Assembly: GCF_056746865.1 (NCBI RefSeq)
Contig: NZ_CM163382.1
Length of the DNA: 64,000 bases
Reading direction: 5' to 3' (one strand)
The notes under the pieces were generated by a model. That model ran no database searches and had not been told where the DNA came from. It saw only the letters and a list, made by a program, of their open reading frames with translations. The translations under genes were made by a program, and so were the position numbers. Of the stretch, positions 43,355 to 47,606 are shown piece after piece (the stretch's first letter is position 1; every line of letters starts with the position of its first letter).

Positions 43355-43514
43355 GAAAACCCAGTCCTTGCAAAGATGAAGTCGAAATGCGCGATGACAC
43401 ACTACTGAAAGCGGAAGGACGAGTAAAGTTGCAATTAAAAGGAAATGTTATGCATAAGGATCGGTAGGGTATTCATTTTCATTTAAAGATATTCTTGCGC
43501 TTTAATTACAAACC

Positions 43515-43740
43515 GCACCGGTGTTGGTGGCGTCAAAATCGCCGAGGCGTTCCCTGAAGGCCGGGGCAGCCCACATGGATGTGGGCTGAGGGCGCGTTTT
43601 ACAGGGATGTTACCTCGCGCCCGACCCGGTAGCCGCAAGGGATAAGTCGAGGGCACCGCGCAGCGGCGATTTTGTTCGCCAGAGCCCGGGGGTGCAGGGG
43701 GCGGCGGCGATTGGCCGCCCCCTGCGCGCTCCCTGCGCCA
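43515..43740. repeat. GC-rich intergenic element with nested inverted repeats (outer 11-bp arms at 43534-43544 and 43664-43674; inner hairpins at 43567-43588, 43591-43623 and 43694-43725)
   Basis: Local GC far above the flanks; several perfect stems of 7-12 bp; no ORF; not a canonical REP sequence. Confidence 0.45.
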
Positions 43741-43800
43741 GTGACTATATGTGGCTTAACACATCAAGGAGCGCAACAGGAAGATGAATCAATATATTTA

Positions 43801-43832
43801 AAAAAGGCCTGACATTGCGCCAGGCCTTCTGC
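43801..43832 (-). terminator. Rho-independent terminator of aqpZ
   Basis: Minus-strand hairpin AAGGCCTGGCGCAATGTCAGGCCTT followed by TTTTTT. Confidence 0.7.
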
Positions 43833-43837
43833 GTTAA

Positions 43838-44533: not shown

Positions 44534-44958
44534 ATCCACCTCAATTAAAAATTGACCCTGTGAAAAATATGGTCGTTTTATAGGGTCGTCGTAAAAAAGT
44601 GACGACGGAAATAATGCGCGGCTATTTTAAAAACGAAGGCGAGTCATTCACCAGATAAATAAATCCAGTAAATTTGATTTAGGGCAACAGCGGGTTGCCC
44701 CATATAGTCATTTGTCTGATTGACAGTGTAGTGCAAGCAAAAGATTTAATCCTTTAGGCGTAATAAAAAATAATTTATCATGCTAATTATTTGATTTTGT
44801 TGTTTTTGCAGGCTTATCAGCAAGAGGGAGTATAACGCGATTATTCGCTCATTTTTCAGACATTTGCCATGCTTAAATGTGATGTCATCACGTATTAGCA
44901 TGGCCTTTCCCGTTATACTGCCAGCGTAAAGGATAAGTCACATATTTCTGGAGGGGAT

Positions 44959-46617
44959 ATGATTCTTGAGCGCGTTGAAATTGTGGGTTTTCGCGGTATC
45001 AACCGTTTGTCGTTGATGCTGGAACAAAACAACGTCCTGATTGGGGAGAACGCGTGGGGTAAATCCAGCTTGCTGGACGCCTTAACCCTGCTGCTATCGC
45101 CAGAATCAGATCTCTACCATTTTGAGCGCGACGATTTCTGGTTCCCGCCGGGAGATATCAACGGGCGAGAACATCATCTGCATATTATTTTGACCTTCCG
45201 CGAATCGCTGCCAGGCCGACATCGGGTTCGCCGCTATCGGCCGCTGGAAGCGTGCTGGACGCCATGCACTGATGGCTATCACCGTATTTTTTATCGTCTG
45301 GAAGGGGAGAGTGCGGAAGACGGCAGCGTGATGACACTGCGCAGTTTTCTCGATAAAGACGGACATCCGATTGATGTCGAGGATATTAACGACCAGGCAC
45401 GCCATCTGGTGCGTTTAATGCCGGTGCTGCGCTTGCGTGATGCCCGTTTTATGCGCCGTATTCGTAACGGCACGGTGCCAAATGTCCCTAATGTGGAAGT
45501 CACCGCGCGCCAGCTCGATTTCCTCGCCCGTGAGTTATCCTCACATCCGCAAAATCTCTCTGATGGGCAGATTCGTCAGGGACTTTCCGCAATGGTACAG
45601 CTGCTTGAGCATTATTTCTCTGAGCAGGGGGCCGGACAGGCGCGATATCGTTTAATGCGGCGGCGAGCCAGCAATGAGCAACGAAGCTGGCGCTATCTGG
45701 ATATCATCAACCGGATGATTGACCGACCTGGAGGGCGCTCGTATCGGGTTATTTTGCTCGGCCTGTTTGCTACTTTGTTGCAGGCAAAAGGCACATTGCG
45801 ACTGGATAAAGACGCCCGTCCATTGTTGCTGATCGAAGATCCAGAAACCCGTTTACACCCCATTATGCTTTCAGTTGCCTGGCATCTGTTGAATCTTCTG
45901 CCATTGCAGCGCATTGCCACCACCAACTCGGGTGAGTTGCTTTCGTTAACGCCGGTAGAGCATGTTTGCCGACTGGTACGTGAGTCCTCGCGCGTTGCCG
46001 CCTGGCGTCTGGGGCCGAGTGGTTTGAGTACCGAAGATAGCCGACGCATCTCTTTCCACATTCGTTTTAATCGTCCATCATCGCTGTTTGCACGCTGCTG
46101 GCTGCTGGTGGAAGGGGAAACGGAAACCTGGGTTATCAATGAACTGGCGCGTCAGTGCGGACATCATTTTGATGCTGAAGGGATCAAGGTCATTGAGTTT
46201 GCCCAGTCCGGGCTAAAGCCACTGGTTAAATTTGCCCGGCGAATGGGGATTGAATGGCATGTACTGGTCGATGGCGATGAAGCAGGGAAGAAATATGCCG
46301 CTACGGTACGCAGCCTGTTGAATAACGATCGGGAAGCCGAACGAGAACATTTAACGGCGTTACCGGCGCTGGATATGGAACATTTTATGTATCGCCAGGG
46401 ATTTTCCGATGTGTTCCACCGCGTGGCGCAAATCCCGGAAAATGTACCGATGAATCTGCGCAAAATTATCTCGAAAGCGATCCATCGCTCTTCCAAACCC
46501 GATCTTGCCATTGAAGTGGCAATGGAGGCAGGACGTCGTGGTGTGGATTCCGTACCGACGCTGCTGAAAAAAATGTTCTCACGCGTGCTGTGGCTGGCGC
46601 GCGGTCGCGCGGATTAA
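44959..46617 (+). CDS. ybjD: OLD-family ATP-dependent endonuclease YbjD (AAA ATPase plus Toprim, 552 aa)
   Basis: ORF translation MILERVEIVGFRGINRLSLMLEQNNVLIGENAWGKSSLLDAL (Walker A GENAWGKSS). Confidence 0.85.
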   Translation: MILERVEIVGFRGINRLSLMLEQNNVLIGENAWGKSSLLDALTLLLSPESDLYHFERDDFWFPPGDINGREHHLHIILTFRESLPGRHRVRRYRPLEACWTPCTDGYHRIFYRLEGESAEDGSVMTLRSFLDKDGHPIDVEDINDQARHLVRLMPVLRLRDARFMRRIRNGTVPNVPNVEVTARQLDFLARELSSHPQNLSDGQIRQGLSAMVQLLEHYFSEQGAGQARYRLMRRRASNEQRSWRYLDIINRMIDRPGGRSYRVILLGLFATLLQAKGTLRLDKDARPLLLIEDPETRLHPIMLSVAWHLLNLLPLQRIATTNSGELLSLTPVEHVCRLVRESSRVAAWRLGPSGLSTEDSRRISFHIRFNRPSSLFARCWLLVEGETETWVINELARQCGHHFDAEGIKVIEFAQSGLKPLVKFARRMGIEWHVLVDGDEAGKKYAATVRSLLNNDREAEREHLTALPALDMEHFMYRQGFSDVFHRVAQIPENVPMNLRKIISKAIHRSSKPDLAIEVAMEAGRRGVDSVPTLLKKMFSRVLWLARGRAD

Positions 46618-47606
46618 CCGCGAAACATCGTGGCCATTTGTGGCTGAATAGCGTCGAGCATCTCATAGCGCCGACGGTATTCAGCCCGTTTTTTACTGGC
46701 GATTTCGGCAATCTCTTTTCGTGCTATCTGTGCTGGAAGGCGGTAATGGCGTTCAGCATCACATACGCCGCCAACCGACTCCCAGAACGCGTTGTAATCA
46801 GCATGGATCTTGCCTTCTTTATCGCGATAACGCAGGCTGCGGTAAATATGTGTTTCATTGCTGACGGCAATGATCTGCTCTACCTGCAAACGTTGGGCAA
46901 ACAGACAGGCCGCTTCCATCACAAGGCGTTTGGGAAATAGCCCGTGGCAGGCTTTCGTCGCATTCTGGATTTCCTGATGTGGAATTTCCCATTTTGCGCC
47001 TTGCAGTCCGCCAATAAACATTGTTCTTTTCCCCTGATATTCACACAGGGTAAACGTGATCTCTGCCAGAGGAATACCTTCGCTGTTGCGGAACAGGATT
47101 GTACTGTCACCTTCTTTATCCATTGAGATCATCATGGTCAGCTCAAGTGTGAACTGCTCGCCGTTTTTGCCTTCCAGCTTCGCCAGTTGCAGCCCGGGGG
47201 TATTCAAATATAAGCTGAATTCTTCCGCCGACATACACCCGCGGAGTAACGCATAATGGTAACGTAACGCCTCCAGCAATTGCTTACGGCTAAGATTCGC
47301 CGCAAGGTAAGGGCGATGCAGACGCACAGGCAGTCGCGGCTGGCGCGTTAACAACACATTGAGATTAGGCCAGTGGGAAAGTTCGTTCATCCACTCAACG
47401 CTTAAACGCGGCATAATCAACGAGCGCAGCAAAAATTTCTGGCGAAAACTACGGCGATGCCAGAATTTACCCGGCCGACACTGTCCACGTGCCAGACTAA
47501 GAAAAAGTGACAGGCTGCTGAGAGATTCAGATGGCGTAAAGGTCCGTTCAGTTAGCTGCGACATATTCATGAAATCAATGGTTATACATGACGTCGATTT
47601 CACCAT
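46614..47606 (-). CDS. ybjX: VirK/DUF535-family protein YbjX (330 aa)
   Basis: ORF translation; position between ybjD and macA. Confidence 0.8.
   Translation of the reverse strand: MVKSTSCITIDFMNMSQLTERTFTPSESLSSLSLFLSLARGQCRPGKFWHRRSFRQKFLLRSLIMPRLSVEWMNELSHWPNLNVLLTRQPRLPVRLHRPYLAANLSRKQLLEALRYHYALLRGCMSAEEFSLYLNTPGLQLAKLEGKNGEQFTLELTMMISMDKEGDSTILFRNSEGIPLAEITFTLCEYQGKRTMFIGGLQGAKWEIPHQEIQNATKACHGLFPKRLVMEAACLFAQRLQVEQIIAVSNETHIYRSLRYRDKEGKIHADYNAFWESVGGVCDAERHYRLPAQIARKEIAEIASKKRAEYRRRYEMLDAIQPQMATMFRG

Follow-up and report, generated by a model that had tools for sequence, protein, structure and literature searches.

YbjD of Escherichia coli is a core-genome OLD-family ATPase-nuclease whose catalytic end looks more like that of Class 2 enzymes

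Introduction

Within the OLD family, TsOLD of Thermus scotoductus (PDB 6P74) and P2 Old, for which a tRNA substrate is now reported, are archetypes of Class 1, whereas Gabija GajA and the OLD protein of Burkholderia pseudomallei (BpOLD) belong to Class 2 (PDB 8U7I, 8SM3, and 6NK8). The roles of the Walker B and D-loop residues of TsOLD and P2 Old have been described (PMC7049728), and the same study found Asn at the H-loop to be common among Class 1 OLDs and an Arg or Lys seven residues past the metal-B Glu in all Class 1 homologues (TsOLD R487, P2 K550). That YbjD is the OLD homologue of E. coli has been known from 2019 at the latest, when Schiltz et al. (PMC6755086) used it as a search seed and assigned it to Class 1. 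Its genetics and defense tests followed in a micropublication of May 2026 (Atahualpa et al., 2026; PMC13261556), and the name oldB has been proposed for the gene.

According to that micropublication, ybjD is expressed, and its deletion left the susceptibility to 68 BASEL phages unchanged. Arabinose-induced ybjD restricted Bas18 and Bas20 and gave small plaques for Bas64-68, both at a non-toxic inducer level, and this anti-phage effect required the ATPase domain while the Toprim domain was dispensable. The toxicity of YbjD was independent of RecBC, and the Walker A mutant K35A was more toxic. The first-pass annotation of the locus studied here had considered a defense role of YbjD not established, which holds for the native role in view of the phenotype-free deletion but is partly outdated by these effects of induced expression. 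The annotation of YbjD as an OLD-family nuclease is thus correct, already published, and not new; what is added here is its core status, the purifying selection with a constrained Toprim domain, and the apparently Class-2-like catalytic end.

Results

Identity and domain architecture

The window, i.e., the whole stretch of 64,000 nucleotides analyzed (contig NZ_CM163382.1, assembly GCF_056746865.1), contains an open reading frame that begins with ATG and is preceded by GGAGG at 44950-44954 (Table 1). Its DNA matched the ybjD gene of E. coli 118UI, labelled 'ATP-dependent endonuclease' in RefSeq, at 100% identity, and the cloning primers printed in PMC13261556 matched the coding sequence at both ends. 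This is the gene of YbjD/OldB in E. coli K-12 (b0876), with 552 residues and the same aqpZ and ybjX flanks; no substantive difference from the K-12 protein was seen, and 118UI was the nearest strain background.

A Pfam search identified DUF2813 over residues 1-375 (E 2e-160), a full-length match (profile positions 1-372 of 372) that, at 534.6 bits, exceeded the gathering threshold of 21. OLD-like_TOPRIM (PF20469) matched residues 376-440 (E 3.8e-16; 59.8 bits, cut-off 23.2), and the N-terminal ~50-75 residues were matched by both AAA_15 and AAA_21. The domain search proposed in the first-pass annotation therefore found every domain it had named, confirming an N-terminal ABC-type ATPase with the Walker A motif GENAWGKSS and a C-terminal OLD-type Toprim region. 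Such a match to a conserved, annotated gene is far beyond chance. We regard the identity of 44959-46617 as E. coli ybjD with OLD-family architecture as nearly certain, and assign a probability of about 0.8 to the joint reading that also includes its core-gene status and a general OLD-type mechanism.

Table 1. Features of the ybjD locus, numbered from the first nucleotide of the window
Feature	Position	Strand	Remarks
Near-palindrome of 39 nt spanning the -35 region expected for ybjD	44866..44904	.	Inverted repeat I1
Candidate -10 hexamer TATACT of a ybjD promoter	44914..44919	+	40 nt 5' of ATG; putative function
ybjD coding sequence	44959..46617	+	From the ORF list; 552 aa and TAA stop; OLD-family ATPase-nuclease
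ABC-type (Rad50/SMC/RecF-like) ATPase region	44959..46089	+	YbjD residues 1-377
Walker A / P-loop GENAWGKSS	45043..45069	+	Residues 29-37, Lys35
Walker B and D-loop LLLIEDPETRLHP	45823..45861	+	Residues 289-301; from alignments to TsOLD and P2 Old
H-loop position TTNS	45919..45930	+	Residues 321-324; from alignment to 6p74
Toprim domain core	46090..46368	+	Residues 378-470
Toprim glutamate motif EGETE	46111..46125	+	E385, predicted metal A ligand; E389, predicted metal B ligand
C-terminal helical domain	46369..46614	+	Residues 471-552; four helices
Toprim DxD motif DGD	46270..46278	+	D438, D440; predicted metal A ligands
DME	46372..46380	+	D472, E474; putative second metal-B ligand pair
Ser-Lys513-Pro motif in the C-terminal helical domain	46492..46500	+	Candidate catalytic lysine
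ybjX (DUF535 / VirK family)	46614..47570	-	Pfam, RefSeq coordinates; convergent with ybjD

ATPase half

Residue conservation was counted over 54 family representatives sharing 28-54% identity with YbjD, which were obtained by an exhaustive representative search. A word-indexed homologue search gave solely orthologues with at least 89% identity, too close for conservation at the family level. As expected of an OLD protein, the N-terminal half carries an ABC ATPase with Walker A, Walker B, D-loop, and an H-loop position, and is split by a helical insertion (residues ~166-285; nt 45454-45813) that occupies the position of the OLD dimerization domain. In Walker A, E30 is invariant and G29 and G34 are each found in 53/54 representatives, and position 35 is Lys in 47, Arg in six, and Ser in one. 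E293, conserved in 49/54, aligns with TsOLD E276 and P2 D299, and H300, conserved in 53/54, with TsOLD H283 and P2 H306. At the H-loop, Asn323 stands in place of TsOLD His310, and the position is Asn in 34, His in nine, Gln in six, and Tyr in four representatives. Walker B reads E-D instead of D-E; together with the degenerate ABC signature and the Asn at the H-loop, this suggests that YbjD may bind ATP without hydrolyzing it. Outside the OLD family, the structures nearest to the ATPase head were those of SMC, Rad50, RecF, and RecN.

Toprim nuclease and C-terminal domain

A high-confidence AF2 model predicts a four-stranded Toprim core (strands 380-384, 409-413, 432-437, and 465-467), in which residues 458-464 form a short helix at the Insert-3 position. 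The conserved Glu and DxD motifs of OLD Toprim domains are both found in YbjD. E385 and E389 align with P2 E398 and E402, and E385 also with TsOLD E377, whereas D438 and D440 align with P2 D453/D455 and TsOLD D431/D433. E385, G386, E387, E389, G439, and D440 are conserved in 54/54 representatives and D438 in 53/54. The active-site residues of YbjD line up with positions that have been mutagenized in P2 Old and TsOLD.

Directly after strand beta-4, D472 (53/54) and E474 (54/54) form a conserved pair that, from motif and position, we infer to be equivalent to TsOLD S478/E480, BpOLD T506/E508, and P2 D541/E543. A pairwise alignment with P2 Old had placed the second metal-B pair at D515/E519, an assignment rejected as misplaced since the family alignment gives the conserved D472/E474. 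The helices of the C-terminal domain are predicted at 473-490, 500-510, 513-527, and 534-547, and K513 and P514 are invariant (54/54). The invariance and position of K513 make it the candidate catalytic lysine, so that YbjD has both a predicted second metal site and a putative counterpart of the catalytic Lys/Arg of OLD enzymes. Absence of the Toprim catalytic residues, named in the first-pass annotation as grounds for its rejection, was not observed, as E385, E389, D438, D440, D472, and E474 are all invariant or nearly so. Judged by these residues, YbjD is apparently a full-length and catalytically competent OLD member.

Relationship to Class 1 and Class 2 enzymes

The assignment to Class 1, which the first-pass annotation shared, holds by gene context (class definitions of Schiltz 2019/2020 and Dot 2023): ybjD is a singleton, with no UvrD-like helicase, retron reverse transcriptase or ncRNA, or split AriB gene adjacent. 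Its C-terminal catalytic region, however, is nearer to Class 2 than to the Class 1 archetypes. Provided that D472-x-E474 corresponds to TsOLD S478-x-E480, the position seven residues past the metal-B Glu is Gly481 in 54/54 representatives and not the Arg/Lys of Class 1. Two residues earlier, at E474+5 (R479 in E. coli), the residue is basic in 18/54 (12 Arg, six Lys), not counting eight His.

Class 1 is also marked by the lack of an Insert-3 helix and of a distinct C-terminal helical domain, features in which YbjD may depart from it. In a model comparison, 164 of the 204 residues in the C-terminal region of Class 2 BpOLD superposed on YbjD at 2.3 A. The PADLOC GajA model PDLC00094 scored 267 bits on YbjD, aligning through residue 549, and aligned end to end in relatives, whereas the PADLOC 'Old' model scored 84 bits and covered residues 252-473 only. 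Likewise, hhalign of the YbjD profile gave E 8.5e-26 over 423 columns with a helicase-paired GajA-like protein and E 2.5e-13 over 233 columns with P2 Old; both profile-profile alignments end soon past the DxD motif, short of the C-terminal lysine. YbjD matches GajA models in sequence or structure, but the helicase of Gabija was found at none of the examined loci. A search among plasmids for a GajB partner to PDLC00094 revealed no intermediate relatives, those present being either orthologues with at least 42% identity or distant OLDs at 25-31%. On these comparisons, the catalytic end of YbjD looks more like that of GajA/BpOLD than that of P2 Old or TsOLD.

Distribution, selection, and genomic context

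The core genome context proposed for ybjD was borne out, as the gene was present in 5424/5426 complete E. coli genomes (median one copy) and syntenic across 80 Enterobacterales species in the slot hcp-lysO-aqpZ-ybjD-ybjX-macAB. In Enterobacterales, ybjD is strictly core and has been inherited vertically at a single syntenic position. The Salmonella and Klebsiella orthologues are 85-90% identical, and full-length homologues with 40-46% identity are found in Vibrionaceae and Aeromonas. The surrounding genes are metabolic and transport genes, with no defense island or mobile element there. Matches that appeared to be plasmid-borne ybjD came from records labelled as plasmids that are in fact chromosomes, chromids, or pieces of chromosomes, and in phages nothing was found apart from the distant P2 Old.

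In comparisons with E. albertii, Citrobacter, Klebsiella, and Enterobacter, the dN/dS of ybjD was 0.015-0.07, like that of macB and aqpZ, and that of the Toprim segment was 0.005-0.05; as dS is saturated beyond Enterobacteriaceae, these ratios are reliable for the closer pairs only. The dN of the Toprim segment was the lowest of five segments in 3/4 comparisons. The gene is therefore under strong purifying selection, with the Toprim domain usually its most constrained part, and with dN/dS not exceeding 0.07 nothing pointed to diversifying selection.

No helicase, reverse transcriptase, or separate Toprim gene was found within 9 kb on either side of ybjD, whose neighbors are aqpZ, ybjX, and macAB, nor any retron or AriB partner nearby. 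A helicase partner was likewise absent from the loci of 80 Enterobacterales, five distant DUF2813 proteins, and two Vibrionaceae, in agreement with the earlier description of a single gene without obvious partner. A true GajA-helicase pair, the ATPase and helicase genes overlapping by 1 nt, was seen on a B. cereus plasmid. A helicase fusion considered for DUF2813 homologues of 800-1870 residues was discarded, since Pfam shows neither a helicase nor any other extra domain in them. The convergent ybjX, whose stop codon overlaps that of ybjD in TTAA (46614-46617), is VirK-like as had been proposed (DUF535, E 3e-102). It was ruled out as a functional partner by its absence from 24/80 related loci, including those of Klebsiella, Raoultella, and Pectobacterium, and by its much faster evolution (dN/dS 0.07-0.19).

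In the aqpZ-ybjD spacer, a scan for consensus sigma-70 promoters called none, TATACT included. Across 12 aligned Enterobacteriaceae genera, however, G-x-TATA was invariant and the following CT at least 90% conserved between divergent flanks. The near-palindrome (arms of 19 nt, 84% complementary) is confined in the alignment to Escherichia (E. coli and E. albertii) and is a possible operator of ybjD. Scanning the same spacer revealed no LexA box, canonical CRP box, or FNR box, and a search against Rfam gave nothing above threshold.

Discussion

The architecture of YbjD is compatible with a nucleotide-gated nuclease. The protein would oligomerize via its helical insert, and nucleotide occupancy of the ABC head would restrain activity, as ATP does for GajA; such restraint fits the greater toxicity published for K35A. 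The Toprim site would cut nucleic acid by two-metal catalysis, with E385/D438/D440 as presumed ligands of metal A, E389/D472/E474 as those of metal B, and K513 as the probable general acid. We give this mechanism as a whole an even chance.

The published work leaves a tension over the native role: the sole phenotype found is nuclease-independent, although the nuclease tends to be conserved more strongly than the other parts of a gene that nearly all E. coli and enterobacterial genomes retain. The anti-phage effect was seen on overexpression and required no more than the ATPase half. We therefore think that the selected native function uses the nuclease and is a conserved cellular role of the genome-maintenance type, or a very broadly useful one, rather than fast-evolving mobile defense. 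That phage defense is not the primary native role is a claim to which we grant somewhat less than even odds.

YbjD could be a dedicated single-gene anti-phage system of Class 1, in the manner of Vibrio cholerae OLD and P2 Old, acting at native levels on other phages, in which the ATPase domain senses infection and the cell is killed or arrested or the phage nucleic acid degraded. Its relatives P2 Old, Vc OLD, GajA, retron Eco8, and PARIS are defense proteins, the PADLOC matches are strong (267 bits for GajA PDLC00094, 84 for Old), and induced ybjD restricts Bas18 and Bas20 and shrinks the plaques of Bas64-68. We nevertheless consider this rather unlikely, both as to the system and as to its mode of action. 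Deletion had no effect on 68 BASEL phages, the overexpression phenotype is independent of the usually most constrained Toprim domain, and the gene is nearly universal in E. coli (5424/5426) and syntenic across Enterobacterales, amid metabolic and transport genes with no defense island or mobile element. Its dN/dS (not exceeding 0.07) gave no hint of diversifying selection, and in phages only the distant P2 Old was found. Core distribution is in itself compatible with defense, some defense genes being fixed in a lineage, and the phages tested numbered 68. By comparison, decay of a Gabija-type GajA-GajB system to an orphaned remnant that lost its helicase and any selected function is very improbable. 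The nearest defense-database family is indeed the GajA model, which aligns end to end in relatives, the YbjD profile is closer to a helicase-paired GajA-like protein than to P2 Old, and the C-terminal region appears Class-2-like. However, a dN/dS of 0.015-0.07 and the invariant active-site residues among 54 representatives exclude neutral decay, and the reading frame is intact in virtually all E. coli; a functionless remnant is thus effectively refuted by the selection data. Since no helicase lies beside any of ~85 family loci examined, any helicase loss must be ancient and the singleton state the selected one.

A domesticated OLD serving housekeeping DNA or RNA metabolism (repair, processing of recombination intermediates, or a chromosome or cell-cycle function), with the anti-phage effect as an overexpression by-product of its SMC-like head, appears somewhat more probable than dedicated defense, although still short of an even chance in both its general form and the functions listed. 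It agrees with the conserved synteny and vertical inheritance of a strictly core gene, with purifying selection that resembles that on adjacent genes and usually bears hardest on the nuclease, and with an ATPase head nearest, outside the OLD family, to SMC, Rad50, RecF, and RecN. The archaeal OLD-family ATPase Cran1 provides a precedent, being a non-defense OLD with an ATPase-dependent, nuclease-independent overexpression phenotype, and the authors of PMC13261556 raised the same possibility. On the other hand, the Keio ybjD deletion is viable, a literature search found no paper that connects the gene with growth, recombination, or DNA-damage phenotypes, the upstream region has no LexA box, and no conserved operon partner indicates a pathway. 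The deletion has no reported phenotype, and any housekeeping role must thus be non-essential or redundant. A more specific proposal, which we advance a shade more tentatively, treats the YbjD/DUF2813 lineage as an OLD branch of Enterobacterales that became domesticated and is passed on vertically, with full-length homologues in Vibrionaceae and Aeromonas. Its selected role would be Toprim-dependent and would lie in cellular nucleic-acid transactions, not in phage defense, its anti-phage effect being a side effect of ATPase-head overexpression. The lineage so described has a seemingly Class-2-like catalytic end and no helicase.

A cellular native role would make YbjD a caution against equating every OLD or defense-HMM match with immunity; a defensive one would make it a rare universally fixed, slowly evolving single-gene system. 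Compared with the Class 1 archetypes TsOLD and P2 Old, to which it is 18-24% identical, YbjD has the invariant Gly481 where they carry R487 and K550, and an invariant K513 within a longer four-helix C-terminal domain. Unlike P2 Old, which sits in a prophage hotspot, it is chromosomal and core, and its toxicity is RecBC-independent (PMC13261556). In contrast to the Class 2 enzymes GajA and BpOLD (578-670 residues), YbjD has 552 residues, lacks an adjacent GajB/UvrD-like helicase, and lies outside defense islands. Cran1 acts in cell-cycle progression, and it is essential and archaeal whereas ybjD is dispensable. As with YbjD, however, Cran1 is conserved in its lineage, seems not to act against viruses, and, when overexpressed, gives a phenotype that needs the ATPase and not the nuclease (PMC12796447), so that YbjD, if its native role proves cellular, would be the bacterial counterpart of archaeal Cran1.

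Identity and active-site residues of YbjD

The ybjD frame proposed in the first-pass annotation matched an entry of the ORF list exactly (552 codons, ATG start, TAA stop), and its DNA matched the ybjD gene of E. coli 118UI at 100% identity; that gene carries the annotation 'ATP-dependent endonuclease' and is flanked by divergent aqpZ upstream and convergent ybjX downstream. A Pfam search assigned residues 1-375 to DUF2813 (E 2e-160), residues 376-440 to OLD-like_TOPRIM (PF20469, E 3.8e-16) and YbjX to the DUF535/VirK family, with AAA_15 and AAA_21 matches confined to the first ~50-75 YbjD residues. Together with the Walker A sequence GENAWGKSS at residues 29-37, these assignments bore out the N-terminal ATPase, the Toprim-like OLD region and the convergent VirK-like neighbour read earlier from the DNA.

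An exhaustive homologue search over 1.84 billion representatives retrieved 335 proteins at E < 1e-30, and column counts were taken from an alignment of 54 full-length members (28-54% identity to YbjD). G29, E30 and G34 were invariant or nearly so, and the K35 column held 47 K, 6 R and 1 S. In the Walker B sequence LLLI-E293-D294, E293 occurred in 49/54 members, and H300 was kept in 53/54. E293 aligned with E276 of the Thermus scotoductus enzyme TsOLD (HMMER) and D299 of P2 Old (P2 Old alignment), and H300 with the D-loop His (TsOLD H283, by HMMER; P2 H306); mutating these residues in TsOLD and P2 Old abolishes activity (Schiltz et al., 2020; PMC7049728). The H-loop position is Asn323, a common variant (PMC7049728).

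The Toprim catalytic residues, whose absence would have spoken against an OLD nuclease, were all present: E385, G386, E387, E389, G439, D440 and E474 were invariant, and D438 and D472 were each found in 53/54 members. The metal A ligands of P2 Old and TsOLD aligned with E385, D438 and D440, and the P2 Old metal B ligand with E389, while D472-x-E474 lies directly past strand beta-4, as does TsOLD S478-x-E480. The AlphaFold2 model built from the family alignment was confident (pLDDT 88.1, pTM 0.87), with an ABC head split by four helices (about 177-277; two loops there are disordered), a Toprim core of four strands (380-467) and four C-terminal helices (473-547). YbjD is a genuine OLD-family enzyme, intact and of predicted activity.

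Two sets of homologues differed in length. Seven DUF2813/OLD proteins of 815-1867 aa (P0149, P0162, P0163, P0165, P0175, P0166, P0206), with normal ATPase and Toprim, had several hundred extra residues within the ATPase region and past the Toprim, without a Pfam match. A 590-670-aa sub-group (P0137-P0145, P0148, P0153, P0154, P0156) matched YbjD in two stretches, with an insertion of about 40-100 residues past the Walker A region.

Sequence features in and around ybjD
Feature	Position	Strand	Description
lysO-aqpZ spacer	43403-43837		GC-rich, up to 58% GC
Rfam TwoAYGGAY	43533-43672		sub-threshold, 29.8 bits vs gathering score 43
Inverted repeat pair	43534-43549 / 43659-43674		16 nt, lysO-aqpZ spacer
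Hairpin	43694-43725		perfect, 12 nt, GC-rich, lysO-aqpZ spacer
Near-palindrome	44866-44904		39 nt, 19-nt arms, 84% complementary, core GTGATGTCATCAC
TATACT hexamer	44914-44919		TATA invariant, CT at least 90% conserved, 12 Enterobacteriaceae genera
GGAGG	44950-44954		upstream of ybjD ATG
ybjD	44959-46617	+	OLD-family gene
ybjD/ybjX overlap	46614-46617		4 nt of coding sequence; stop codons share palindrome TTAA
ybjX	46614-47606	-	DUF535/VirK family

Flanking sequences

The near-palindrome, confined to E. coli and E. albertii, lies directly upstream of the TATACT hexamer and could act as an operator specific to this lineage, over the -35 region of a candidate ybjD promoter; LexA, canonical CRP and FNR boxes were not found upstream of the gene. 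The repeats in the lysO-aqpZ spacer are probably REP-type extragenic repeats. The overlapping ybjD-ybjX pair has been classed as a convergent 'excludon' (PMC12288877); in other genera the gap ranged from a few nt up to about 90 nt, apart from one locus where it reached about 1.1 kb.

Distribution and selection

Of 5426 complete E. coli genomes, 5424 carried the ybjD locus, with a median of one copy and identities of at least 95% throughout. In the best 80 loci, one genome per species (64-99% identity to YbjD), the slot lysO/hcp-(aqpZ)-ybjD-(ybjX)-macAB was kept from Escherichia to Serratia, Hafnia, Pectobacterium and Brenneria. Further orthologues occurred in Yersinia (65%) and Proteus (56%); Aeromonas (45%) and the genera Vibrio, Photobacterium and Salinivibrio (about 42%) had full-length homologues. 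The Vibrionaceae gene was flanked by ordinary genes with a recurrent TerC-ushA neighbourhood, a second, lineage-specific conserved setting without obvious functional link; at the Vibrio-type loci L082 and L092, it was divergent from an ushA-like 5'-nucleotidase gene, with a TerC gene adjacent.

The phage search retrieved no close relative; its sole match was P2 Old, 28% identical across 189 residues. Several PLSDB 'plasmid' records with ybjD (e.g., NZ_OL790696.1, NZ_CP141089.1, CP125156.1) were chromosomes of 4-5 Mb, chromids of 0.6-2 Mb or short pieces of chromosome from single-cell assemblies; these matches do not indicate mobility.

By the Nei-Gojobori method, quantitative only for closer comparisons since dS was saturated in more distant pairs, ybjD dN/dS was 0.015 (E. 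albertii), 0.031 (Citrobacter), 0.068 (Klebsiella) and 0.046 (Enterobacter), values close to those of macB and aqpZ. The Toprim segment (dN/dS 0.005-0.05) had the lowest dN of five segments in three of four comparisons, and the helical insert was the most variable. For ybjX, dN/dS was 0.07-0.19; the gene was lacking at 24 of the 80 loci (among them those of Klebsiella, Raoultella, Pectobacterium, Superficieibacter and Mangrovibacter), and its identity was only 45-60% between most of the Enterobacteriaceae genera that share 80-91% identity in ybjD.

Mechanism and native role

YbjD (b0876) served as the seed for collecting OLD homologues, and E. coli was placed in Class 1 (single isolated genes), in Schiltz et al. 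(2019; PMC6755086). A micropublication of May 2026, whose authors proposed the name oldB, reported that ybjD is expressed and that the Keio deletion left susceptibility to 68 BASEL phages unchanged; arabinose-induced YbjD reduced plaquing of Bas18 and Bas20 and plaque size of Bas64-68 (PMC13261556). ATPase residues 1-377 were necessary for this effect, a construct lacking the Toprim (378-552) behaved like the full-length protein, K35A retained the phenotype with higher toxicity, and the toxicity was RecBC-independent, unlike that of P2 Old (PMC13261556). The earlier statement that a defence role is not established thus holds at native level but not on overexpression.

By analogy with TsOLD, BpOLD and GajA, the ATPase insert would most likely hold a YbjD oligomer together, a nucleotide-sensing ABC head would restrain its activity, and a two-metal Toprim nuclease would be the effector; the K35A hyper-toxicity fits such nucleotide-bound restraint.

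Because the anti-phage effect depends on overexpression and is independent of the Toprim, yet selection has kept the Toprim site unchanged in a gene lost by almost no enterobacterium, we tentatively place a conserved, nuclease-dependent cellular role, at a probability of about 0.4, slightly ahead of a dedicated native defence role. That YbjD is a Gabija remnant without function is very unlikely.

The observation on ybjD and its reading as an OLD nuclease are confirmed and supported, respectively, and are already in the literature. Our comparative points had no counterpart in the searchable papers, and a DUF2813 literature query returned none; the core status of ybjD, the strongest constraint usually falling on a nuclease described as 'dispensable', and a singleton whose catalytic end is Class-2-like together form a modest, testable extension.

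Comparison with OLD enzymes of Classes 1 and 2

Its gene context places YbjD in Class 1, in keeping with its first description as a single gene without obvious partner: helicase, retron or AriB genes were found neither near ybjD in E. coli nor in the 80 Enterobacterales species (best loci, one genome per species), at five distant DUF2813 loci or in the Salinivibrio and Vibrio loci. In contrast, the ATPase and helicase genes of a true Class 2 pair (B. cereus locus L094) overlap by 1 nt.

At the catalytic end, however, YbjD looks unlike the Class 1 archetypes. Arg/Lys seven residues past the metal B Glu (TsOLD R487, P2 K550) is described for all Class 1 homologues, whereas in Class 2 a separate helical domain supplies the lysine (BpOLD K562) (PMC7049728). 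Members of the YbjD family have an invariant Gly (G481) at +7, and an invariant Ser-Lys513-Pro starts the third C-terminal helix (54-member alignment; AlphaFold2), making K513 a candidate catalytic lysine.

The PADLOC 'Old' model scored 84 bits on YbjD with an alignment ending at residue 473, and the GajA model PDLC00094 scored 267 bits through residue 549. PDLC00094 also matched other singleton DUF2813 proteins end to end (relatives P0126, P0155 and P0184, 260-380 bits), so that HMM-only annotation could mislabel core genes as Gabija components. The family profile matched P2 Old (E 2.5e-13, 233 columns) more weakly than a GajA-like protein paired with a helicase (E 8.5e-26, 423 columns). Class 2 has been placed inside a paraphyletic Class 1 (PMC12796447), and the Class-2-like catalytic end of the singleton YbjD fits this nesting.
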